Part shown: positions 46,678 to 58,748 of the stretch, piece by piece
Layout: each line of letters starts with the position of its first letter
How positions within the stretch are numbered: position 1 is the first letter of the stretch
DNA from: Nitrospirota bacterium
GTDB taxonomy: Bacteria; Nitrospirota; Thermodesulfovibrionia; Thermodesulfovibrionales; Dissulfurispiraceae
Direction: 5' to 3'
Length of the DNA stretch: 64,000 nucleotides
Assembly (NCBI GenBank): GCA_963790025.1
Contig: CAWBMP010000004.1
Span: 416,001-480,000, forward strand
Made by a program: the position numbers and the translations under genes
Notes under the pieces: generated by a model
Told to the model about the DNA's origin: nothing
Databases searched by the model: none
The model's input: the letters and a program-made list of their open reading frames with translations, nothing else

Positions 46678-48837
46678 TTAATTAGGTTTTGACAATTCCG
46701 CCAGCAGCTCAGCCAGCATTTTATAATGACCCCGCTCCACAGAGACCTTGATCGAGGAACTCAATAGGGGTTGGATGTCTTTGGTGTTTGCCGGTCTCGA
46801 AAATAGATACCCCTGACTTTGACTGCATCCCATCTCTTTCAGCTTCTCAAGCTGATCTATTGTCTCGACTCCTTCAGCAGTTGATTCCAGACCCAAAGAG
46901 TTCGACAGCAATACCACTGTTTTAATGATCTCAAAGTTTTGAGGATCAACCGTCATCCTGCTGATAAAGCTCCGGTCGATCTTAACGCTATTGACAGGAA
47001 ATCGCGGCAGATAACTCAACGATGAGTACCCGGTGCCAAAATCATCAATTGATAAACGCACACCCAGCCCTTTCAACTTGCGAAGTATGTCCACGGTATC
47101 ATGAGAATCTTCCATTATCACGCTCTCTGTTATCTCGATGTCCAGCAATTCGGGTTTAAGGCCCGTATCATCCAGTATTTTTGAAACCACGTCAACAAAA
47201 TCCTTTTGTCTCAGCTGCCGGGCGGACACATTAACAGCAACAGCCAACGTGGGCATACCTGAATCGTTCCATGCCTTGACCTGGGTGCAAGCAGTCCGCA
47301 TGACCCACTCACCCATGGGAATTATCAAACCGTTTTCTTCCGCAACAGCTATAAACTCCCCCGGCATTACAATCCCGCGTGCGGGATGCGCCCATCGTAT
47401 AAGTGCCTCTACAGCTATTGTCTGGCCGGTGCGCAAGGATACAATGGGTTGATAGTGAAGGCAGAATTCCTGATGTTCCAGTGCTCTCCTAAGCTCACTT
47501 TCGAGCTGCAGCCTTGTGACAGCCTGTGCATGCATTGAGTGGTCAAAAATCTCATGCCGTGCTTTGCCTTTTGATTTGGCCCGGTACATGGCAGTGTCGG
47601 CATCCCGAAGCAGGTCTTCCGACCTGGTATAATCAGTTGAACTGAAAGCAATGCCTATACTGCACGACACGAACATTTCAGTCCCGCCAATGACAAAAGG
47701 CTCCTTGAGGGTTTCCTGTATTCTTTCCGCGGTGCGCGTTGCAGAATTAGTTTCATTTAAATCCTCCATGAGAACAACGAACTCATCGCCTCCAAGACGC
47801 GCAACAGTATCTTCAGTTCGCACACAGTCCTTAAGCTTCCTGGACACCAAAATGAGCAGTTCGTCGCCGATATTATGTCCGAGACTGTCATTGATGACTT
47901 TGAAACTGTCAAGATCAAGGAAGATGACGGCAAAGATATCGTCACTGTTGCGCACTGCACGCTTCCATGCCTGTTCAAGTCTGTCCATCAGCAATGCCCT
48001 GTTAGGCAAACCGGTCAATGAATCATGAAATGCATCGCGCAGCAATTGTTCCTCGGCACGTTTGCGCAACGTGATATCTGACATGGAGCCGGCCATACGA
48101 TATGGTTTATCTTTGTCATACCGCACGGCAATGCCCCGGCAAAGCATCCAGCGTTCGGTACCGTCCCTGTGGCGCATCCGGTATTCTGCTTCAAAATGGT
48201 CGGATGCGCCATCCAGATGAGCGCCGATCAGCACCTTGACCTTCTCTAGCTCGTCAGGGTGTATCCTGCTGAACCACTCGTCAAGACTCTCACCGATATC
48301 GCCCTCTTCATATCCAAGCATTGACTTCCAGCGGAAGGAATAATGGACCGTACCCTCTTCTATGTTCCAGTCCCACAAGCCGTCGTTGGCCCCCATTGCA
48401 GCAAGGGCATAGCGCTCCTGGCTCACCCTCAGTTCTTCGGCCGTCCGGCTTGAACGTAAAATATAACGGACATGATGTCCCAGTAATGCCGACTTGAGCG
48501 GTTTTGTTATAAAGTCAGTAGCGCCCACTTGATAGGCCTTGTTTATTGATTCGGTATCTCCAAGACCTGTCATCATCAGGATCGGAACAAAGTTCCCGCC
48601 AGGCATGTCCCGCAGCTTGGTACAAACAGCAAAACCATCAAGCCCGGGCATCTGGACATCCAGCAGGACTATATCCGGCTGCAGCCGCTCAAAAGACTCA
48701 ATTGCCGTGATGCCTTCAGCAGCTTCCTCAACAGTAAAACCTGCTTCAGTCAAATATCCAGCGGCCAGAAGCCGCATGGTTTCATCATCATCCACAATCA
48801 ATATAAGGGGGATCTGTCGCTGGGTCCTCGGTTTCAT
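46678..48837 (-). CDS. REC-PAS-GGDEF-EAL c-di-GMP enzyme
   Basis: REC (LLDVQMP), GLWDW PAS, RTED...GGDEF, EALIRW, DDFGTGYSS. Confidence 0.95.
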   Translation of the reverse strand: MKPRTQRQIPLILIVDDDETMRLLAAGYLTEAGFTVEEAAEGITAIESFERLQPDIVLLDVQMPGLDGFAVCTKLRDMPGGNFVPILMMTGLGDTESINKAYQVGATDFITKPLKSALLGHHVRYILRSSRTAEELRVSQERYALAAMGANDGLWDWNIEEGTVHYSFRWKSMLGYEEGDIGESLDEWFSRIHPDELEKVKVLIGAHLDGASDHFEAEYRMRHRDGTERWMLCRGIAVRYDKDKPYRMAGSMSDITLRKRAEEQLLRDAFHDSLTGLPNRALLMDRLEQAWKRAVRNSDDIFAVIFLDLDSFKVINDSLGHNIGDELLILVSRKLKDCVRTEDTVARLGGDEFVVLMEDLNETNSATRTAERIQETLKEPFVIGGTEMFVSCSIGIAFSSTDYTRSEDLLRDADTAMYRAKSKGKARHEIFDHSMHAQAVTRLQLESELRRALEHQEFCLHYQPIVSLRTGQTIAVEALIRWAHPARGIVMPGEFIAVAEENGLIIPMGEWVMRTACTQVKAWNDSGMPTLAVAVNVSARQLRQKDFVDVVSKILDDTGLKPELLDIEITESVIMEDSHDTVDILRKLKGLGVRLSIDDFGTGYSSLSYLPRFPVNSVKIDRSFISRMTVDPQNFEIIKTVVLLSNSLGLESTAEGVETIDQLEKLKEMGCSQSQGYLFSRPANTKDIQPLLSSSIKVSVERGHYKMLAELLAELSKPN

Positions 48838-48986
48838 TGCACTCTCCTTTGAGGTCTTTCCAGGGTTATATGCATAGCATGCTATTCTTTATTAAACACA
48901 TTCCTGATTCAGTTTAAATGGTCGGCTTTGAGCCGGGCTTGCCGCATTTGCATGTGTTAAGGTCCATCCTTTCCTACGGCAAGTTT

Positions 48987-51900
48987 TTATGATGGGAGGT
49001 TGCCGTCCTGGGTAAGCAGTCCCCTCTTTTGGAGCTCCATCTCAAGGGCAATGATGACTGCCTCGCTTTCTGCTTCAACCTTCTGAAACAGTTCGCCGGC
49101 CCTGTCAAGCTCATTATTCCTGCCAATGTTCTCCAATTCCTGCAAAAGAGAAGCAAGCGATTTTGCCCCGACTGCCGCGCTGCTCGACTTCATGGTGTGC
49201 GCCTGGAACTTGATTCCGCCGGCATCGCCGCCGGCCACGGCATTGCGCAACGCCCCCATGTACTTTATCGTATTATTCATGTAAAGTGTAATGACCTTGC
49301 CGAGTAAGGCGGTGCCGCCACTTTTCATGGAAGCAGTTATTTCATCCAAGACCCCGTTATCAATAATAGTCGGTGAAGGCGCCGGCTCCTTCACAGGTGA
49401 GCTGATGCCCGTTGCCCGGGCTGAAGATGGCAGGACGTCGCAGCGGCGGACTTCGCCCTTTTGCACCCACCGGCCTATAATTGACAAGAGATCTGCTTTC
49501 TTGAACGGCTTGGTGAGATAGTCATCCATACCTGCGGCGATGCACAGGTCCCGGTCACCCTGCATCGCATGTGCTGTCAGAGCAATGACCGGCACACGTT
49601 TTCCACCATTTAACTGTCTCTCCCTGTACCTTATTATTTTTGTCGCTTCATATCCGTCCAGTACCGGCATCTGGCAGTCCATAACAATAAGATCATAGGT
49701 GGTCTTTAAAAAAGCATCAATGGCCTCTGCGCCATTGTCCACAATATCGACTTCCAACCCTAACCCTTCGAGCATGCCCTTTGCTACAGCCTGATTGGTG
49801 GGGTTGTCCTCGGCAAGAAGAACGCGCCCCTCAAGCCTGACCTCAACATCAGGGTCAGGATAGTCATCGCTCGCTGAGTGCAAAGGTGTCCCGGCGGTCT
49901 GATTCAAAACTGAGACTATGCAGTCGAAGAGCTGGGACCGCTGCACCGGCTTGTTCAAGAAGGCGTCGACGCCGATCTCCTTCATATGTTTAGTGCTCAT
50001 ACGATAGCCGACAGGGGTCAACATGATAATTCGCGTGTTGCTGATGTCGGTGTCGGCTTTTATAGCTCGGGCCAGCTCTCCTTCGTCCATATCTGCCAGC
50101 TTTGTGCCTATGAGCGCCATGCCGTATGGCTTTCCGGCTATGTATGCGGCACGCAATATATGCAACGCCTCCCGACTGTCCGATACGCTCTGATTCTGAA
50201 TGCCCCAAAGAGACATCTGTTCGGTCAGGAAGAGACAAGTAGTTGCATTATCATCAACAACAAGGACGCGCAGGCATTTGGACCCCGGAGGGATGGCCTC
50301 TTTTACGTGACTGTCATGAGGTTGTTTTTGGAACCGCGCGGTAAGCCAGAATGTGGACCCCTCTCCGTATTTGCTCTCAAAATGCAAATCACCACCCATA
50401 AGGATGCTGAGCTGTTTGGCAATAGCGAGACCCAATCCGGTGCCGCCATGCTTTCGAGTGGTTGATACATCCGCCTGCGTAAAAGGCTGGAAGAGTTTTT
50501 CCTGCATCGCGGGCTTGATTCCGATCCCAGTGTCACGGATTGAAAACTGGAGTTCGCATTTGTCTTCATCTTCATCCCTGACCTGTACATCAAGCACCAC
50601 CTCTCCCTGCTCAGTAAACTTTATGGCATTCCCGATGAGATTGATCACAATCTGACGAAGACGCTCCGGGTCCCCGCGCAGGGCAGTAGGGACATTGTCC
50701 TGTATTCTGCAGGCAAGGTCCAGTTTCTTCCGGTGAGCGCGCTCGGCAAGTAACTGTACTGACTCTTCAACAGTCCTGTGAAGATTGAAGTCGATGTTCG
50801 CCAACTCAACTCGCCCTGCCTCTATTTTCGACAAATCAAGAATGCTGTTTATGATGCTCAGCAGAGACTCTCCGGAACTCCGGACGATTTCGGCGAAACG
50901 CCGCTGGTCATCGGTCAATCTGGTCTCTAATAGAAGTTCTATCATACCGAGCACTCCATTCATCGGGGTGCGTATCTCATGGCTCATGTTGGCGAGAAAC
51001 TGGGATTTTGCCATGCTCGCTCTCACAGCGTCTTCTTTGGCTTTTTTAAGGGCTTCCTCTGTCGCTTTGCGCTCGGTGATGTCCAAAGCAATACACACTG
51101 CCCCCTGAATATCGCCGTCAGAGGTATGCATGACAGAACGGGAAAAAAGCACGGGGATTCTTTTGCCGTTCTTTGCAAGGTAAACCATCCCTAAATTTGA
51201 TAGTGACCCCTTTCCAGTTAACTCGTTGAATCCGTCCCGTGGTATTGAAAAGGCCCCGTCCGTACCTTCGGGCGCAAGAATTTTTTCTATTGGCTTGCCG
51301 ATAAGCTCCTCCTCCGTATATCCCAACAGGTCAAGGGTGGCTCTGTTTACTTTGTTGATGGTGCCCGCAGTGTCAGTTACGATTAACGCGTCGTTCATCG
51401 ATTTAATGATATCATCGGTGTATTCCCGCGAGGCGACAATCTCTTCCTGTGATTTCTGCAAGGCTTCGGTCATCCTGTTAAACGAATTACCGAGACGTTC
51501 CAACTCGTCTCCTGTTCTTATCTCAGCCCTTGCCGTCAGGTCTCCCGCAGCTACACGCTGGGTCGCCTTGTCCAGCGCATTGATCGGACTGCTCAGCTTT
51601 CTTGCGAAGATAAGCGATGCAGCCATAGCCAGGAAGCTACAAAAAAGAGTCAGCCATAAAGTCCGGAAATACATGCTTCTGACATCAGCGTTATAGTCCT
51701 TCAGGGACAGACCTATATGTATCCAACCCCAGTCTATTCCCGAGTATTTGAAGGGATAGGAATAATGAAATACTTCCTGCGACACCAAATCGCTTTTCAG
51801 GAATGTGCGTCTTGCCTGCCTGCCGTCGGCAGGGTTCCACATGCCGCTGAGTTGACGCTGTTTCCACCCGCTTGCAGTATGCACAAGCGAAAACCCATCG

Positions 51901-52199
51901 TTTCGCGTTATCACTACGTAGAGAATGGAAGAACTCTCTTTTACCACTCTCATGCAATGCTCAACAACTGCACCGTAGTCTTCAGAAATAACCGCACCTG
52001 CGACGACCTGGTCGATAGAGGTCACTATGTTACTGGCCTCTGATTCCATGCTCTCGACAAGGGCCTTTCTCTGGTATGGGAGGTTGGAGGCGACATATAT
52101 AACGAGGGTCACAACAATCAGCAGCCACGAAAGGATAGTGGTGCGCAGAAGTATCCTGTTTTTCCAAAAAGTTATCTCATCCTTCCATATAAATCTCAT
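48987..52199 (-). CDS. Hybrid sensor kinase (2TM-HAMP-PAS-HisKA-HATPase-REC-REC-Hpt)
   Basis: MSHEIRTP, GNAIKFT, GGTGLGL, MDCQMP, AHTMKSSS; first REC lacks the phosphoacceptor Asp. Confidence 0.94.
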   Translation of the reverse strand: MRFIWKDEITFWKNRILLRTTILSWLLIVVTLVIYVASNLPYQRKALVESMESEASNIVTSIDQVVAGAVISEDYGAVVEHCMRVVKESSSILYVVITRNDGFSLVHTASGWKQRQLSGMWNPADGRQARRTFLKSDLVSQEVFHYSYPFKYSGIDWGWIHIGLSLKDYNADVRSMYFRTLWLTLFCSFLAMAASLIFARKLSSPINALDKATQRVAAGDLTARAEIRTGDELERLGNSFNRMTEALQKSQEEIVASREYTDDIIKSMNDALIVTDTAGTINKVNRATLDLLGYTEEELIGKPIEKILAPEGTDGAFSIPRDGFNELTGKGSLSNLGMVYLAKNGKRIPVLFSRSVMHTSDGDIQGAVCIALDITERKATEEALKKAKEDAVRASMAKSQFLANMSHEIRTPMNGVLGMIELLLETRLTDDQRRFAEIVRSSGESLLSIINSILDLSKIEAGRVELANIDFNLHRTVEESVQLLAERAHRKKLDLACRIQDNVPTALRGDPERLRQIVINLIGNAIKFTEQGEVVLDVQVRDEDEDKCELQFSIRDTGIGIKPAMQEKLFQPFTQADVSTTRKHGGTGLGLAIAKQLSILMGGDLHFESKYGEGSTFWLTARFQKQPHDSHVKEAIPPGSKCLRVLVVDDNATTCLFLTEQMSLWGIQNQSVSDSREALHILRAAYIAGKPYGMALIGTKLADMDEGELARAIKADTDISNTRIIMLTPVGYRMSTKHMKEIGVDAFLNKPVQRSQLFDCIVSVLNQTAGTPLHSASDDYPDPDVEVRLEGRVLLAEDNPTNQAVAKGMLEGLGLEVDIVDNGAEAIDAFLKTTYDLIVMDCQMPVLDGYEATKIIRYRERQLNGGKRVPVIALTAHAMQGDRDLCIAAGMDDYLTKPFKKADLLSIIGRWVQKGEVRRCDVLPSSARATGISSPVKEPAPSPTIIDNGVLDEITASMKSGGTALLGKVITLYMNNTIKYMGALRNAVAGGDAGGIKFQAHTMKSSSAAVGAKSLASLLQELENIGRNNELDRAGELFQKVEAESEAVIIALEMELQKRGLLTQDGNLPS

Positions 52200-53173
52200 T
52201 CCGCCCGCTCCCCAATTATTGTCCTCTCTGCTCTCTGATTTCCTGCCAACGGCCTTCCCTCCGGATGCTTACGCTTATCCAGCAATGCCATAGTAGGGTC
52301 CAGCATGGATGGGTTGAAGGGCGTTATGTCGTCTATCTGGAAAAGAGTGAGGATTTGTTTCCCCGAAGCCGTTGAGTGTATGTTCACAGCAATCTTTGTC
52401 ATTTTAGCTTTGATGTCGGCCCTCAGAAGTTTATGGAAACAGAAGATTCCGTCCAGGAGTTTGTCGGAACTCAGGAGGACCGTCAGTTCCTTTCCTATTT
52501 GCGGGTTGAGCTCGACCATCGTCTCATATGCGCTCTTGCTGACAAGACAGGCATCTGATTGCTTGAAAAAAACCGGCAGCACGGCCTGGGAAGCTTTGTT
52601 TACTTCCTTATCGGACCCGAAAAACCTTTCATAGTCGGGCAGGCTCCTGCGGGCCATAACGCTGCTCAGCCAGAGATGGGCAGTTTCAATAATGGGGCCG
52701 GAATGTACTATCAGCCTCTTGCCTTTAAGTTGACTTATGTCCCTGATCCCCTGGTCCCGCCGCACAAGGAGCACAAGTTCGTCGCCGCCAACTGCGTTCC
52801 GTCTGCTTCCCACAAAAGCCGGTTCCAGTGGGGCCCTGTCCCTGATCTTCAGGTAGTCTATTGCTGTTACGGCGACAAAGTCTATCGTCCTGTTATTCAG
52901 GGCCTTCACTATCGATTGAAGGTTGTCAAAGATTAAAGGCTTCGGCTGCATTGTTTTAAGAGTTGAACTTGGGGTGAGTTCTCTCGTCCACAGTGAAAGG
53001 GCAACCTGGGCATCCGCCACGCTGACGCTGCTGAGGAAAAACTTGCTGGAATAGCCGATTCTAAGGACTTCCGGAGAATAGTCGCTGTTTTCACCCCAGC
53101 ATACGTCGTTTGTGCAAAACAGGGCAATGAGGCAACAGGCAACCAATCGAATATCTATTTTGAACGAGTCCAT
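52196..53173 (-). CDS. PhnD/SsuA-fold periplasmic binding protein, paralog 1
   Basis: Signal peptide, I.DI.QLKGKRL, AVLPVFF.Q.DACLV, ELNPQ; overlaps the kinase start by 4 nt. Confidence 0.8.
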   Translation of the reverse strand: MDSFKIDIRLVACCLIALFCTNDVCWGENSDYSPEVLRIGYSSKFFLSSVSVADAQVALSLWTRELTPSSTLKTMQPKPLIFDNLQSIVKALNNRTIDFVAVTAIDYLKIRDRAPLEPAFVGSRRNAVGGDELVLLVRRDQGIRDISQLKGKRLIVHSGPIIETAHLWLSSVMARRSLPDYERFFGSDKEVNKASQAVLPVFFKQSDACLVSKSAYETMVELNPQIGKELTVLLSSDKLLDGIFCFHKLLRADIKAKMTKIAVNIHSTASGKQILTLFQIDDITPFNPSMLDPTMALLDKRKHPEGRPLAGNQRAERTIIGERAE

Positions 53174-53216
53174 TCAATAGTCCTATGGCGTAGACGCAGC
53201 AATCCCTTTTTTTATG

Positions 53217-53243
53217 TTATCGGCATTGCTGTTGCAAACTTTA
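53217..53243 (-). promoter_or_regulatory. sigma28 (FliA) promoter, perfect consensus
   Basis: TAAAGTTT-N11-GCCGATAA. Confidence 0.85.
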
Positions 53244-53408
53244 TTACAGCACGCATTCCTATTCTCCTTCCTTGGAACAAGCACTGTCCCCTCGCAACGA
53301 TCACTGCCAATTTGGATAAAAATCTGCTGATTTAAAAGACAATACCATAATTCAGTGCCTCTGATCTATCATACTCCACTGTGCTCTTAATCTATCATAA
53401 ATAAAGAC

Positions 53409-53435
53409 TAAAGAAAATGTAATAAACAACGATAA
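53409..53435 (+). promoter_or_regulatory. sigma28-like promoter for the tolC-like operon
   Basis: TAAAG-N14-AACGATAA. Confidence 0.55.
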
Positions 53436-53504
53436 AAAACAATACTCGATGAATTTCTGCCTATACATCGAGTCAGGACTTGCAAATGGAATTTGGGAGG
53501 GACA

Positions 53505-55001
53505 ATGAAAGAATTCTTGGTGTCATCAGGGCTGATTATTTCACTCGCATTGGTAATGCCGCTGACCTCAACGGCAGCGGAAGCATTACCGGGTGAACAA
53601 ATGCATCCCGAAAAGGAGGGAGTGAACGAACAAAAAGTACAGAGCTTGAGTCTCGAGGAGTGCCTGGAGATTGCCGTTAAGAACAACCGGACGCGTCCAG
53701 CCTCTCAATTCGCTGTTGAAATAGCCGAAGCCCAGCTACAGCAGTCGCTCTCGTCTTACTGGCCTCAATTAGCATTAACGTCAACTTTTAGTCATATTGA
53801 CCATAACCCCAACTTCATTTTTCCAGTGTCATCAATAGGCGTCCCGGCATCATCGTTCACCGCTATTACCCCGCTCGGAACTCTCCCGGTTAATGTCCCG
53901 GCGCAGTCCATCAATGTTCCCATTCAAAATATAAAACTCATGAATAAGGACACTCTTATGACCTCTCTGAACGCTACCTATCCGGTGTATACGGGCGGCC
54001 AGCGCCCTGCCATCGTCAAACAAGCCCGAAGTGGTCTTGAGTCTGCAAGACAGGAAGCCAGACGTACGGACCTTCAGGTCATATATGATGTAAAGCGTAT
54101 GTATCACGGGGCGGTCCTTGCACGTGAACTCCACCGGATCGGCAGTGAGGCCCTTCAGCGGCTTGAAGTGACGCTTGAGCTTACTGAGAAATTATACAAG
54201 AACGGTTCAGGCAGGGTTAAGAAGACGGACTACCTGCGAAACAAGTCCGTAGTTGAGGCGCTGCGGAGCGCAGTCACTTTCATGAAAGCCAACGAAGAAC
54301 TCACGCTTTCTGCATTAATTAATACGATGGGGTTAGATTGGGACACCAAGATCCAGGTCTCGGAAGCTCAGATTCCTTTCAATAAGTATCAGGCCAACCT
54401 GAGAGAGTTAATGAGCAATACATATACATTTAATCCTGATTGGGCAAGGATGCAGGAGGGCCTGAAGGCTGCCGAGGCAAAAGTAGATGAGGCTAAAAGC
54501 GGGCATCTTCCCAAGATAGCACTGACAGGGAGCTTTACAAATATTGATAATTCCTACAATCAGGGAATTGTTACCCCTGACAACAAGAATAGCTGGAACG
54601 TAGGCGCTGTTCTTGAGTTTCCTCTGTTCAGCGGCTTTCGCACCAGGGAGGAGATACGGGAGGCCATTGCACGCCTTGGAAAACTGTCTGAAGAGAAGGT
54701 GCTGCTGCGTGAGGGCATTGCTCTGCAGGTCAAATATATATTCACCACGATGATGAGCGCGCAGGAGCAGCAACAGTCAACACTCGATGCATCCAAAGCG
54801 GCTGAGGAGAACAGGGACCTGAACGAACGGGCGTACCAGGATGAGTTGGTTGAAACAAAAGATGTAATAGAGGCGCAGCTGGTAGAGTCTTTCATGAAAG
54901 CGCAGTACCAGAAAACGCTGTATGACCATATTGAGACACAGGCGCATCTGGACTTTGTGGTGGGTAAGGAAGTGGACAAACTGCTCTTTGGAGGACAATA
55001 A
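53505..55001 (+). CDS. TolC-family outer membrane protein
   Basis: Signal peptide, LSLEECL..A..NN, two OEP repeats (P.L.L...PVYTGG; PKI.L...PLFSG). Confidence 0.85.
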   Translation: MKEFLVSSGLIISLALVMPLTSTAAEALPGEQMHPEKEGVNEQKVQSLSLEECLEIAVKNNRTRPASQFAVEIAEAQLQQSLSSYWPQLALTSTFSHIDHNPNFIFPVSSIGVPASSFTAITPLGTLPVNVPAQSINVPIQNIKLMNKDTLMTSLNATYPVYTGGQRPAIVKQARSGLESARQEARRTDLQVIYDVKRMYHGAVLARELHRIGSEALQRLEVTLELTEKLYKNGSGRVKKTDYLRNKSVVEALRSAVTFMKANEELTLSALINTMGLDWDTKIQVSEAQIPFNKYQANLRELMSNTYTFNPDWARMQEGLKAAEAKVDEAKSGHLPKIALTGSFTNIDNSYNQGIVTPDNKNSWNVGAVLEFPLFSGFRTREEIREAIARLGKLSEEKVLLREGIALQVKYIFTTMMSAQEQQQSTLDASKAAEENRDLNERAYQDELVETKDVIEAQLVESFMKAQYQKTLYDHIETQAHLDFVVGKEVDKLLFGGQ

Positions 55002-55079
55002 GAAATGATCTTGGGGACTCTCAAGTGCAAGGGAACGGGTCAAGATGACAGCACGCTAGGAGATACCAAGTTGAGGTCA

Positions 55080-56015
55080 ATGAAAAAACAGGTCCTGTTA
55101 GCTTCTTTAGTATTTGGCTTGATCTTGTTATGTCAGGCAGGGCATGGCCGGGCTGAAAACAACGAGTTTAAGCCGGAAGCCATCAGGTTCGGCTATTCGT
55201 CCAAGTTCCTCAATGATGTGAGCGTAGGGGAGGCCCAGGTCGCCATCGAGCTGTGGATAGGGGAGATCACCAAAAATACAGCGTTCAAAATGAAGCCGAA
55301 GCCTTTAATTTATGACCACCTTCAATCGATAGTAAAGGCCCTGAATAGCAGGGAAGTCGATTTTGTCGCCATATCAGCAATAGACTACCTGAAAATCAGG
55401 GACAAAGCACCTCTGGAACCGGCTTTTGTGGGAAGCAGACGGAAAACCGTTGACGACGAACTGGTGCTTCTTGTGCGACGGGACCAGGGGATCAGGGACA
55501 TAAGTCAACTTAAAGGCAAGAGACTGATAGTTCACTACAGCACCTTGATTGACAGCGCCCGCCTCTGGCTGAACAACGTTTTGGCCCGCAGGAACCTGCC
55601 TGACCCTGAAAGGTTTTTCGGGTCTGATAAGGAAGTAAATAAAGCTTCCCAGGCCGTGCTGCCGCTCTTTTTCAAGCAGGCAGACGCTTGTCTTGTTAAC
55701 AAGAGCGCATTTGAGACGCTGGTTGAGCTCAACCCCCAAATAGGAAAGGAACTGATAGTCCTTTCGCATTCCGATAAACTTGTATACGGATTGCTCTGTT
55801 TCCATCGTTATCTGAATGCCGATCTCAAAAAGCAGCTGACAAAGACTGTTTTGAACTTGCACACTACTCCCGGAGGCAAACAAATACTTACACTTTTCAA
55901 GATAGAAGGCTTGACGTCCTTCAACCCATCCATGCTGGATACTTCCGTGGCCTTAATGGATAAGCGTAATCACCAGGATGGAAGGTTGTTGGTCAATAAG
56001 CAGAGAGAACAATGA
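55080..56015 (+). CDS. PhnD/SsuA-fold periplasmic binding protein, paralog 2
   Basis: Same motifs as 52196-53173; start at MKKQVLL. Confidence 0.8.
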   Translation: MKKQVLLASLVFGLILLCQAGHGRAENNEFKPEAIRFGYSSKFLNDVSVGEAQVAIELWIGEITKNTAFKMKPKPLIYDHLQSIVKALNSREVDFVAISAIDYLKIRDKAPLEPAFVGSRRKTVDDELVLLVRRDQGIRDISQLKGKRLIVHYSTLIDSARLWLNNVLARRNLPDPERFFGSDKEVNKASQAVLPLFFKQADACLVNKSAFETLVELNPQIGKELIVLSHSDKLVYGLLCFHRYLNADLKKQLTKTVLNLHTTPGGKQILTLFKIEGLTSFNPSMLDTSVALMDKRNHQDGRLLVNKQREQ

Positions 56016-56118
56016 CGTGGGGGCGAGAATCTCAATATACTTGCTGCTTTACAAAAAATTCCTGGAGGAATGGTATAATTCAGCAAAGGCTTCTGCGACA
56101 TACGCAAGGATTCAATAT

Positions 56119-57075
56119 ATGAAACTATCGGGAACGTGCGCAGTGAATAAACAGGTCCTGTTGGCTTCTTTAGTATTTGGCTTGACATTGTTATGTCAGG
56201 CAGGGGATGGCCGGTGTGAAAACAATGAGTTTACGCCGGAAGCCTTGAGGTTCGCCTATTCGTCCAAGTTCATCAATGATGTGAGTATAGGGGATGCCCA
56301 GGTTGCAATTGAGTTGTGGACAAGGGAGCTCATCCGGAATACAGCGTTAAAAATGAAGCCGAAACCTTTAATTTATGACCACCTTCAATCGATAGTAAAG
56401 GCCCTCAATAACAAAGAAGTCGACATCATAGCCTTAACACCAATGGACTATCTGAAAATAAGGGACAAAGTACCTCTGGAACCGGCCCTCTTGGGAAGCA
56501 GACGGAATGCCATCGACGGCGACGAACTCGTGCTCCTTGTGCGGCGGGACCAGGGGATCAGGGACATAAATCAACTTAAAGGCAAGAGGCTGATGGTATA
56601 CCCGGGCCCGATTGCTGACAGTGCCTACCTCTGGCTGAACAACATTTTGGCCCAAAGGAACCTGCCCGATCATGAAAGGTTTTTCGGGTCCGGTAAGGAA
56701 GTAAATAAACCATCCCGGGCCGTTTTGCCGGTCTTTTTCAGGCAGGCGGATGCCTGTCTTGTTATCAGGGGCGCATTTGAGACGATGGTCGAGCTCAACC
56801 CGCAAATAGGAAAGGAACTGATGGTCCTTTCGAATTCCGATAAACTGCTATACGCAGTACTCTGTTTCCATAAGTATCTCAATGCCGAAGTCAAAAAGAG
56901 TATTATGAAGAGAGCTTTCAGCTTGCACACTACCCCCGCAGGCAAGCAAATCCTTACTCTTTTCCATATAGACTCAATAGTGCCCTTCAACCCATCCGTG
57001 CTGGATACTTCTGTGGCCTTAATAGATAAACGTAATCACCAGGATGGAGGGTTGTTGGTAAAAAAACAGAAATGA
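56119..57075 (+). CDS. PhnD/SsuA-fold periplasmic binding protein, paralog 3
   Basis: Tandem duplicate of paralog 2 (start may be GTG 56143); extended -10 TGgTATAAT at 56071-56079. Confidence 0.8.
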   Translation: MKLSGTCAVNKQVLLASLVFGLTLLCQAGDGRCENNEFTPEALRFAYSSKFINDVSIGDAQVAIELWTRELIRNTALKMKPKPLIYDHLQSIVKALNNKEVDIIALTPMDYLKIRDKVPLEPALLGSRRNAIDGDELVLLVRRDQGIRDINQLKGKRLMVYPGPIADSAYLWLNNILAQRNLPDHERFFGSGKEVNKPSRAVLPVFFRQADACLVIRGAFETMVELNPQIGKELMVLSNSDKLLYAVLCFHKYLNAEVKKSIMKRAFSLHTTPAGKQILTLFHIDSIVPFNPSVLDTSVALIDKRNHQDGGLLVKKQK

Positions 57076-57081
57076 AAAGTT

Positions 57082-57888
57082 TCACCACCCACGCTGCCGG
57101 ATAGCTTCATACAGGCTGATGGATGCGGCCATGGCAACATTCAGGCTTTCGGCCCTGCCTATAACAGGTATTCTGAACAGCAGTCCGCATTTTTTCAGCA
57201 AGGCAGCACCAATACCATGCGCCTCATTGCCAAAAGCAATCGCAACAGGCTCCCTGAAGTCGGCTGCATAGAGTGAATGTGAAGCATGGGCCTCCGCCGC
57301 ATACAGCCTGATTCGCCGTTCAGCCAGAAAGCACACGAGTTCTTCCACTCCGGCATGGAGTACCGGGACAGTAAAAATACTCCCCGCAGACGCCCTTATC
57401 GCTTTTGGCATGAAGGCATCGCAGGTCCCCGGCATAAGCAGGACAGCGTCTGCACCCGCTGCATCGGAGGCCCGGATAATCGTCCCCATATTCCCGGGGT
57501 CCCGGATACCGTCGCATACAACGAGCAAGGGCATCGTTTTCAGGGGTATTGCGTCGAGTGCCGCCGGTTTAAGTGAGAGCACTGCCACAATACCCTGCGG
57601 CGTTTCAGTATCGGCCAGTTTTTCAATAACACGTTTCGATGTCTCGACAAGTTGAACCGATGTTCCCTTCAGCGGCTTCAAGAGCCTCTGCCCCAATCTG
57701 GAAGAAGAGAAGTCTTCAGTAAAAAAGACCTGCTTAAGTTCGGCAGCCGTGGAAGCAAGGGCCATTTCTACAAGATGGGGACCCTCGATAACAAAAGCGG
57801 CTCCTCCATGCCTGCCGCGTCTCTCCTTTTTTTTTAAAGCTTCCTTGATCAGCGGATGCGCAGAACTGGTGAGCGTGAGCTGCTTCAT
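57082..57888 (-). CDS. TrmH/SpoU-family RNA methyltransferase
   Basis: IEG, ETPQG, DPGNMGTIIR, GNEAHG, ESLNVA. Confidence 0.92.
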   Translation of the reverse strand: MKQLTLTSSAHPLIKEALKKKERRGRHGGAAFVIEGPHLVEMALASTAAELKQVFFTEDFSSSRLGQRLLKPLKGTSVQLVETSKRVIEKLADTETPQGIVAVLSLKPAALDAIPLKTMPLLVVCDGIRDPGNMGTIIRASDAAGADAVLLMPGTCDAFMPKAIRASAGSIFTVPVLHAGVEELVCFLAERRIRLYAAEAHASHSLYAADFREPVAIAFGNEAHGIGAALLKKCGLLFRIPVIGRAESLNVAMAASISLYEAIRQRGW

Positions 57889-58748
57889 AAGGATACTTTG
57901 AACGGCGCAGGCATGAACGTGATAATAAATATCACCAGGGCCAGTAATCCTATCATCCTTCTTTTGGAGTCGAGAGGAGATTCCCAGTGCAGTACCGGAG
58001 GGTGCTTGATACCGAGAAAAAGCATCAGGACCGCCCACATGAGCCAGCCTTCCCATCCTGAAAAACCAAGCAATGAGGAGATGCCGAGAACAGCTAGCAA
58101 CCCCACAAGGAATCGAGACACATAACGTTGTCGCTCGCCCAAAATTGCATAAGCGATATGGCCCCCGTCAAGCTGGCCTATGGGTATAAGATTGAGCGAT
58201 GTCACGAAAAGCCCTATCCAGCCTGCAAAAGCAACGGGATGGAGTAATATGTCATAGTTTGCCGGCGTGACGCCGAGGACCATACGTGAAAGAAAAGAGA
58301 ACAGGATGGAATCACCGAGAGATAGAGAGCCGTCACCCTGAGGCACCGGTATCACCTTTGACATGCTGAGGCCGATGACACACGCTGCTACAGAAATAAT
58401 GAAACCGGCGATCGGTCCCGAGGCCCCGATGTCTATAAGCGCCTTCCGCGTAATGATAGGCGACTTCATTTTTATGAAGGCGCCGAAAGTCCCGAAGATC
58501 GAGGGTGCGGGAATAAAATACGGGAGCGTTGCAACGGTATGGTTCCTTCTGGATGCAATATAATGGGAGAACTCATGGAAAAGCAGTATGGTCATCAGCG
58601 TTCCGGCAAAAGGCAGCCCTTCAATAATTCTGCCCGGGGATTTAATGATATTGATCCCCTGCTGAAGGGCGCCCGCAGACAACGTTGACAGAAATGTCAT
58701 AATGAAAAGAATTATATGAAGATACGGAACCTTTCGCCAATGCCACAT
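57885..58748 (-). CDS. Site-2 protease (M50)
   Basis: HEFSH, GPIAG, NLIPIGQLDGGH. Confidence 0.92.
   Translation of the reverse strand: MWHWRKVPYLHIILFIMTFLSTLSAGALQQGINIIKSPGRIIEGLPFAGTLMTILLFHEFSHYIASRRNHTVATLPYFIPAPSIFGTFGAFIKMKSPIITRKALIDIGASGPIAGFIISVAACVIGLSMSKVIPVPQGDGSLSLGDSILFSFLSRMVLGVTPANYDILLHPVAFAGWIGLFVTSLNLIPIGQLDGGHIAYAILGERQRYVSRFLVGLLAVLGISSLLGFSGWEGWLMWAVLMLFLGIKHPPVLHWESPLDSKRRMIGLLALVIFIITFMPAPFKVSL

Follow-up and report, generated by a model that had tools for sequence, protein, structure and literature searches.

Divergent PhnD-fold binding proteins, a hybrid kinase and a TolC-family protein without a pump: a candidate envelope-sensing cassette in Nitrospirota

The subject of this report is a divergent two-arm gene cassette in a Nitrospirota genome of 3.45 Mb (labelled G000), in which an earlier note made from the sequence had recognised a candidate trans-envelope signalling system. 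It lies in the window, that is, the whole stretch of DNA that was analysed (64,000 nucleotides, positions 416001-480000 of contig C4), where its six open reading frames (ORFs) occupy 46678..57075 and, according to the ORF listing and Pfam, all encode the domains that the note had named. The left arm, on the minus strand, encodes binding protein 1 (BP1, 52196..53173, 325 aa), which has a signal peptide and a divergent PF12974 (PhnD-fold) domain scoring 86 bits, a hybrid sensor histidine kinase (48987..52199, 1070 aa) of the Pfam architecture HAMP-PAS-HisKA-HATPase_c-REC(x2)-Hpt, and a response regulator (46678..48837, 719 aa) that Pfam resolves into REC-PAS-GGDEF-EAL. The right arm, on the plus strand, encodes an outer-membrane protein of the TolC family (hereafter OEP, 53505..55001, 498 aa) with two OEP repeats (150.5 bits in Pfam), followed by binding proteins 2 (BP2, 55080..56015, 311 aa) and 3 (BP3, 56119..57075, 318 aa), whose PF12974 domains score 86 and 91 bits, respectively.

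The 4-nt overlap between the stop of BP1 and the start of the kinase gene, which the earlier note had pointed out, is real, and the regulator gene follows that of the kinase after 149 nt. Between the arms lies an AT-rich spacer of 331 bp (53174..53504), in which both promoters are presumed to sit; GC falls to 0.454 in the interval 53000-53999 that spans it, and a scan of the spacer for promoter consensus sequences gave weak promoter-like matches only. The ORFs of the right arm open earlier than the genes are likely to start (OEP at TTG 53493, BP2 at 55005, BP3 at 55978). The most likely start for the OEP is ATG 53505, after a GGGAGGG ribosome-binding site, and for BP2 and BP3 the ATG codons at 55080 and 56119, since the longer ORFs would add residues ahead of the signal peptides.

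BP1, BP2 and BP3 are paralogues of each other, with identities of 61-75% (65% between BP1 and BP2, 75% between BP2 and BP3); all score above the Pfam cut-off for PF12974 and have hydrophobic, signal-peptide-like N-termini. The AlphaFold2 (AF2) model of BP1 (pLDDT 87.9) shows the two-lobed type II binding-protein fold and has more than 500 Foldseek matches, headed by ArrX (E 2.6e-21), PtxB, XAC2383 (5ub3, E 3.7e-18) and AioX, with PhnD coming after them. ArrX is also the best sequence match of the binding proteins (E 2.2e-5), at 17-18% identity in the structural alignment. A distant resemblance extends to the sterol carrier BstB, which matches BP1 and BP2 weakly and BP3 not at all (NCBIfam 26-34 bits, far under the family cut-off of 350 bits); its structure, PDB 7t1m, matches BP2 at E 1.8e-4 and, of the structures listed as matching the BP1 model, comes first by target-normalised TM-score (0.77). 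BstB binds 4-methylsterols (PMC10942540).

Homologues of BP2 (235 clusters at E <= 1e-10) carry only generic names such as phosphonate or "PhnD/SsuA/transferrin" proteins; those that are named come from metagenome-assembled genomes (MAGs) of Deltaproteobacteria, Thermodesulfobacteriota, Aminicenantes, Latescibacteria and Thermoanaerobaculia. Phosphonate transport is very likely the wrong annotation for these proteins. On the PhnD equivalog TIGR03431, BP1-3 reach 38-42 bits against a cut-off of 261, and on PF12974 itself the genome's own PhnD scores 185 bits versus 86-91 for BP1-3. Moreover, all cassette binding proteins lack three motifs common to the genome's PhnD and four generic PhnD-like proteins (alignment A7), namely S/T-T-x-G-Y after the strand that follows GK, the STY segment and G-T-H, which we take, from E. 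coli PhnD structures, to be the phosphonate binders. In the corresponding segments the cassette proteins have largely hydrophobic residues instead, and it is mainly in these same segments that the paralogues diverge from one another, a pattern that would fit diverging ligand specificity. The gene context differs as well: the genome has a canonical phnF-phnD-phnC-phnE-phnG-phnH operon on contig C5 (L020, C5:1-13000), which holds its only PhnE. On motifs, scores and gene context alike, phosphonate uptake was rejected as the function of the cassette. The PhnE of the C5 operon is a duplicated fusion of 518 aa, and the operon's regulator is of the GntR/PhnF type.

The earlier note had claimed that both the binding proteins and the TolC-like protein are without their usual partners, and the genome bears this out. 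No ABC, membrane-fusion protein (MFP) or resistance-nodulation-division (RND) genes were found within 15 kb of the cassette; on the contig, the nearest HlyD-type match lies 204 kb off and the nearest RND gene 215 kb, with the closest ABC ATPases 33 kb to the left and 15.6 kb to the right. The cassette OEP is in this respect the odd one among the 14 OEP genes of the genome, as all 13 others have a gene for an HlyD-type adaptor within 7 kb, mostly directly adjacent and often accompanied by an RND or ABC gene. The idea of a canonical operon for efflux or type I secretion was rejected, since adaptor and pump are both missing. Elsewhere in the genome, on contig C2 (52462-56874), a single uninterrupted ORF of 1470 aa runs in frame from a full RND transporter (ACR_tran) through a signal-peptide-like segment into a full OEP; this is either a genuine fusion of pump and duct, or else two genes that lack a stop codon between them.

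The OEP has a signal peptide without a lipobox Cys and falls below both NCBIfam cut-offs for the TolC family (102 versus 225 bits). Solved outer-membrane factors match the profile of its clade weakly (SilC at E 4.5e-14, OprM at 3.2e-12, TolC at about 1e-8). Its own homologues are numerous, with 914 clusters (90% identity) at E <= 1e-40, the top 120 of which show 53-74% identity and span several phyla. Their names go no further than "TolC family protein" or "outer membrane protein", and the MAGs that encode them belong to Dissulfurispiraceae, Thermodesulfovibrio, Thermoanaerobaculia, Geobacteraceae and Desulfuromonadales. A tree of genomic sequences unites the six OEPs of cassettes (SH-aLRT 100) and separates them from the other 13 that this genome encodes; the split holds when 31 metagenomic sequences are added, with all 37 OEPs that are adjacent to binding proteins in a single clade (FastTree, support 100, stem 1.17).

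The kinase begins with a transmembrane segment, a periplasmic Cache-like sensor of about 135 aa (residues ~40-177) and a second transmembrane segment. All the residues of a phosphorelay are in place (H407 in HisKA, D841 in REC, H1001 in Hpt), and in the first of the two receivers Asp is replaced by G698, which makes it a pseudo-receiver. Partial NCBIfam scores for the core to TorS, BarA and LuxQ-like models all stay below the equivalog cut-offs, and the kinase is thus of the same type as BarA/TorS/ArcB and not an orthologue. The regulator has the phospho-acceptor D60 and intact catalytic motifs (I-site RxxD at 340-343, GGDEF at 349-353, EAL at 477-479, DDFGTG at 598 and EGVET at 655). The relay from Hpt to REC that the earlier note had postulated, ending in an enzyme for cyclic di-GMP (c-di-GMP), fits these sequences.

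On the sensor domain of the kinase, no Pfam model reaches its cut-off (sCache_3_2 comes closest, at E 0.0015), and a PDB sequence search with the first 200 residues gave no match. The AF2 model (pLDDT 88) consists of two helices, a six-stranded sheet and a C-terminal helix, and its Foldseek matches are Cache/PDC domains such as the Tlp3 module (TMq 0.70) and the extracellular domain of WalK. The domain is strongly conserved (alignments A3/A6) and defines a sharply bounded family: its profile retrieves 470 representative clusters at E <= 0.001, of which 221 remain at E <= 1e-30, sits at the N-terminus in all of them, and finds no match in the kinases that stand beside generic PhnD-like proteins in this genome and its relatives. 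The best 150 proteins with this domain are almost all histidine kinases, of several subtypes, and three carry GGDEF or GGDEF-EAL. One protein (P0369) joins a sensor domain of the cassette type to a Ser/Thr protein kinase domain, with a YfiR/HmsC-like domain at the C-terminus.

Neighbourhood surveys of homologues, the check that the earlier note had asked for, came out in its favour: the subfamily of the binding proteins occurs together with the OEP clade and with the sensor domain of the kinase, and no transporter genes go with them. In a sample of 401 genomes of the phylum, the subfamily (profile A1, E <= 1e-30) was detected in seven genomes. The reverse search of the same sample, with the OEP clade profile (A5, E <= 1e-60), also returned seven, with one copy each and 394 of the 401 without a match; a binding-protein gene follows the OEP in all seven, six of which are genomes with the subfamily. 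The seventh (G236) is represented by a 3-kb contig that ends 98 aa into an ORF resembling the N-terminus of a binding protein (E 8e-7). The gene orders vary on a common theme. In a sister MAG, also of Nitrospirota (G002), the OEP is followed by one binding protein and the kinase, between flanks that differ from those in the window (glyQS, proB), and the same three genes run up to a contig end in G337. Two binding proteins follow the OEP in G020, then the kinase, a REC-PAS-GGDEF-EAL regulator and a further binding protein; in G028 there are three, then the kinase, a REC-PAS-PAS-GGDEF-EAL regulator and a sigma-54 activator. The cassette of G036 is cut by the contig end within the first of two binding proteins, which precede the kinase and a REC-PAS-GGDEF-EAL regulator. 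In G290, after the OEP, two binding proteins and the kinase, comes a REC-DUF3369-HD_5 (HD-GYP-like) regulator in place of GGDEF-EAL (L040:4083-5621), so that c-di-GMP may still be the currency in this lineage, via a different enzyme. GGDEF-EAL regulators come after the kinase in G020, G028 and G036, at loci L016, L018 and L019 and at the metagenome loci L047, L048 and L046. The genes that flank the cassette vary between genomes. A scan of genome contigs with the three paralogues retrieved a single locus only, in the sister MAG, and tblastn searches of a plasmid collection with BP2 and with the OEP gave no match. A search of sequencing runs for this DNA listed no run of RNA, and one of DNA that shares 0.27 of its words.

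The picture from metagenomes is similar. With a 45-sequence alignment of the binding proteins, the best 80 of 312 relatives were placed on 75 loci, which fall into 65 groups after merging near-identical ones. Of the 75 loci, 39 contain an OEP, 38 a kinase whose sensor is of the window type, and 29 contain both. Among groups with at least 1.7 kb of sequence upstream of the first binding protein, 25 of 28 have the OEP, and of 33 groups whose sequence runs on downstream for at least 1.5 kb past the last binding protein, 30 have the cassette-type kinase (the exceptions being L042, L049 and L099). Median gaps are short (19.5 nt from OEP to binding protein, -4 nt from binding protein to kinase over 33 junctions). 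Cassettes contain one to five binding-protein genes, the commonest orders being an OEP followed by two binding proteins and the kinase (six), by one and the kinase (five) or by three and the kinase (three), and variants have the OEP in mid-cassette or after the kinase. Profiles for MFP, RND and ABC proteins gave no match among the 488 ORFs of these loci; as a control, the MFP profile detected a known, Pfam-confirmed HlyD protein from L041 at 1.9e-10. Neither HlyD nor ACR_tran, ABC_tran or BPD_transp was detected by Pfam in 80 of the 134 unassigned flanking ORFs, which encode unrelated housekeeping proteins, some response regulators, one TonB-dependent receptor and one NMT1-type pair. In these surveys, then, homologues were seen neither in phnCDE operons nor, for the TolC-like protein, with MFP/ABC exporters, and chance adjacency is rejected, since the gene set recurs not only in relatives but also in further families of the phylum and in phyla beyond it. 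The TonB-dependent receptor (L064:13314-15383) lies a few kb downstream of a cassette with two OEP matches and four binding proteins, at this single locus. The NMT1-type pair (L053:7204-10216) consists of two NMT1/THI5-like binding proteins directly after a cassette kinase and is followed by a HAMP protein, a binding-protein/sensor unit of a different family.

What might such a cassette do? We think it rather likely, judging from sequence and gene order, that it encodes a self-contained envelope sensor in three tiers, in which the binding proteins act on the kinase, the kinase relays to c-di-GMP and the dedicated OEP is the third part. The three divergent PhnD-fold proteins (one to five elsewhere) would bind a ligand that is probably not a phosphonate and would dock on the periplasmic Cache-like domain of the kinase, as AioX does with AioS and ArrX with ArrS. 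Phosphate would then pass from H407 to D841, on to H1001 of Hpt and finally to D60 of the regulator, which upon phosphorylation would shift the synthesis or breakdown of c-di-GMP. The TolC-family protein, as an obligate third part, would most likely provide access across the outer membrane for the ligand of the binding proteins or a site on which these proteins dock. The inner half, a binding-protein-dependent kinase, is the best-supported part of this proposal; for the OEP, it is co-inheritance alone that suggests a role in the module.

Contact between binding protein and kinase is also what structure prediction tentatively points to. For BP1 (residues 28-305) with the kinase sensor (40-177), the predicted complex scored 0.54 (runs at 0.51, 0.54 and 0.63), while none of three controls got above 0.00, which lends the contact weak support; the runs share at least 95% of their contacts, and both partners have pLDDT of at least 82. 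Of 157 solved complexes, 116 reach the mark that this score passes, as do two of 215 mismatched pairs; this calibration holds only roughly here, since our own alignments were used. Scores past the mark and no higher than 0.60 were obtained for 18 of the 157 solved complexes and for both of the mismatched pairs that passed.

Several points weigh against the three-tier sensor. By the calibration of the tool, a pass at 0.54 is more often wrong than right unless the complex is likely beforehand. The OEP is not always there: some metagenome groups are without it despite visible upstream sequence, with a binding protein and kinase or a lone binding protein (L050/L057, L052, L116), and further copies of the binding proteins stand without an OEP in G002, G020 and G290 (L015, L017, L038, L039, L041). 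In L015 the binding protein precedes a kinase, in L017 a dCache-PAS-GGDEF protein and in L039 a kinase and a REC-GGDEF-EAL regulator, from which it follows that the kinase can apparently work without an adjacent OEP. The output differs by lineage (GGDEF-EAL, HD-GYP-like, REC-GGDEF or a second kinase), and c-di-GMP is therefore not a defining output; the c-di-GMP enzyme that the earlier note had pointed out is intact here, and such an output is common in the cassette but not universal. TolC-family ducts are known as exit channels that need an adaptor to open, so that a role in ligand entry would be unusual. Finally, the metagenome sample is anchored on one peptide pattern of the binding proteins, the ORFs of its loci were called crudely and labelled with our own profiles, and the outgroup of the OEP tree consists of this genome's own OEPs only.

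A rival arrangement, which we regard as unlikely, is a pump-like signalling complex, in which an OEP trimer in the outer membrane, the binding proteins as an adaptor at its tip and the Cache domain of the kinase in the place of the transporter would form one structure, and what the kinase senses would be the condition of the duct or outer membrane, not a solute that diffuses freely. The conserved order of outer-membrane protein, periplasmic protein(s) and inner-membrane protein, with short or overlapping junctions, speaks for such a complex, and so does the OEP itself, which is unusually conserved for an outer-membrane protein. Its two putative periplasmic helix-turn-helix segments, presumably placed at the tip as in TolC-family structures, rank second and third in conservation among the 15-residue stretches of the clade, and the first has a clade-specific insertion of two residues and a Lys-rich signature, both absent from the 13 other OEPs of the genome. 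However, a number of binding proteins that varies from one to five is easier to reconcile with a range of ligand specificities than with a fixed adaptor ring, and some pairs of binding protein and kinase do without an OEP.

These same OEP-less pairs would be at home in a plainer alternative, which appears improbable, in which binding protein and kinase form an ordinary co-sensor pair and the OEP is a co-transcribed general exit duct for pumps encoded elsewhere, as with E. coli TolC, whose gene lies apart from those of its pumps. At least nine RND genes and many MFP genes of the genome could use a shared duct. Yet the 13 other OEPs each stand beside their own MFP, which means that this organism does not use the shared-duct arrangement, and the cassette OEPs are a separate clade that stands beside binding proteins in all seven genomes and in 25 of the 28 informative metagenome groups. 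Furthermore, 394 of the 401 genomes are without this type of OEP at E <= 1e-60, and genomes without the binding proteins lack it. As for the transport or trafficking of a hydrophobic compound, with the binding proteins as shuttles to or from the outer membrane like BstB and the kinase in a merely regulatory role, the resemblance to BstB and the hydrophobic residues in place of the anion motifs of PhnD would favour it, but we hold it very improbable, as those matches are so far under the family cut-off, no inner-membrane transporter was found in or beside the cassettes (488 ORFs and 80 of the 134 flanking ORFs) and the constant inner-membrane partner is the kinase, which is translationally coupled to the last binding protein.

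To return to the three-tier sensor, its inner half has clear precedents. The earlier note had likened the binding proteins to LuxP and TorT as co-sensors of the kinase; the role as such is in keeping with the co-occurrence in the cassette, but the closest precedents are others, namely AioX, ArrX and XAC2383, all of the PF12974 type. AioX binds As(III) and stimulates AioS (PMC8050422), and AioX, ArxX and ArrX make up a co-sensor family of PF12974 type (PMC5908839). According to passages of these two sources, the AioX-AioS-AioR, ArrX-ArrS-ArrR and ArxX-ArxS-ArxR systems, like the cassette, place a PF12974 protein without an ABC partner beside a membrane kinase, AioS-type kinases resemble the cassette kinase in having an sCache-like periplasmic domain, and an outer-membrane component is not mentioned in those passages. 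A binding-protein gene coupled directly to that of a membrane kinase with a periplasmic Cache-like domain, which is the AioX/AioS-type arrangement, is what we find in the cassette. The differences are an identity of about 17% between the binding proteins, a sensor domain of another family and the presence of several paralogous binding proteins; moreover, there is no sigma-54 regulator here, nor an arsenic enzyme gene in the annotated region of the window. The AioXSR layout exists in this genome as a separate locus without an OEP (L021, C3:229000-242000), where an FGE-sulfatase-like gene is followed by a PhnD-like protein (210 bits), a HAMP-PAS-PAS kinase and a sigma-54 response regulator. The pairing of a PhnD-like protein with a HAMP kinase seen there recurs in five of seven loci of relatives (L007, L008, L010, L011 and L013).

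Other known systems share parts of the design. XAC2383 is reportedly a PhnD-fold periplasmic protein paired with a membrane c-di-GMP protein, XAC2382, which is itself a cyclase, whereas the cassette has a kinase relay; we know of no TolC-like gene in that system. TorT-TorS, LuxP-LuxQ and NspS-MbaA follow the same logic of a periplasmic binding protein that modulates a membrane sensor (TorS and LuxQ being hybrid kinases with a phosphorelay, like the cassette kinase, and the output of NspS-MbaA being c-di-GMP), but with other families of binding proteins, other sensor folds and no known outer-membrane partner. Tripartite efflux and type I secretion systems (TolC/OprM/CusC) have in common with the cassette a two-repeat OEP and a gene order that runs from outer membrane through periplasm to inner membrane, and differ in the adaptor and pump, which the cassette does not have. 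Outer-membrane components wired to an inner-membrane signalling protein are known from RcsF, which together with outer-membrane proteins signals to IgaA/RcsC/D, and from FecA-FecR-FecI. These are unrelated families, a lipoprotein threaded through porins in Rcs and a TonB-dependent transducer with an anti-sigma factor in Fec, and neither is known to use a TolC-family protein or a binding protein. In the literature searched, with most subscription journals outside it, no description of a TolC-like partner for a binding-protein-dependent kinase was found, nor a characterised system of this composition, which agrees with the earlier note. The binding protein as a co-sensor of a kinase is thus a known principle (AioX/AioS, ArrX); what is new is a dedicated TolC-family partner, along with two specialised families that lacked annotation.

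The usual view of TolC-family proteins is that they form the exit ducts of efflux pumps and secretion systems. A clade of OEPs that is found with binding proteins and a matching kinase, and never with a pump, therefore suggests a different job for the TolC fold, and the cassette would add an outer-membrane tier to binding-protein-dependent two-component sensing. Since it is compact (3 to 8 genes), the proposal is testable in a heterologous host. A bolder thought, which we place on the doubtful side, is that this TolC clade has moved from efflux to signalling as part of a physical, pump-like complex spanning the envelope, with PhnD-fold adaptors and a Cache kinase in the place of the pump. If true, the complex would (i) report a cue from the outer membrane or the extracellular space to two-component and c-di-GMP signalling, (ii) add to TonB-dependent transducers and Rcs a third way of signalling across the envelope, and (iii) be widespread in phyla of anaerobic sediments and soils (Nitrospirota, Thermodesulfobacteriota/Desulfuromonadales and Acidobacteriota, going by the names of the sources).

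In the window, the cassette is flanked by housekeeping genes, with a nitroreductase, L9 and DnaB on one side and a SpoU methylase, an M50 peptidase and a MiaB-like enzyme on the other. Of these, the nitroreductase gene, which lies downstream of the regulator gene, was considered as a member of the system and rejected, as it is not kept in related loci. On the other side, the SpoU methyltransferase ORF (57082-58056, minus strand) overlaps the upstream M50 peptidase ORF (57885-58748) by 172 nt; its Pfam domains start only at residue 68, so the real start is probably further in.

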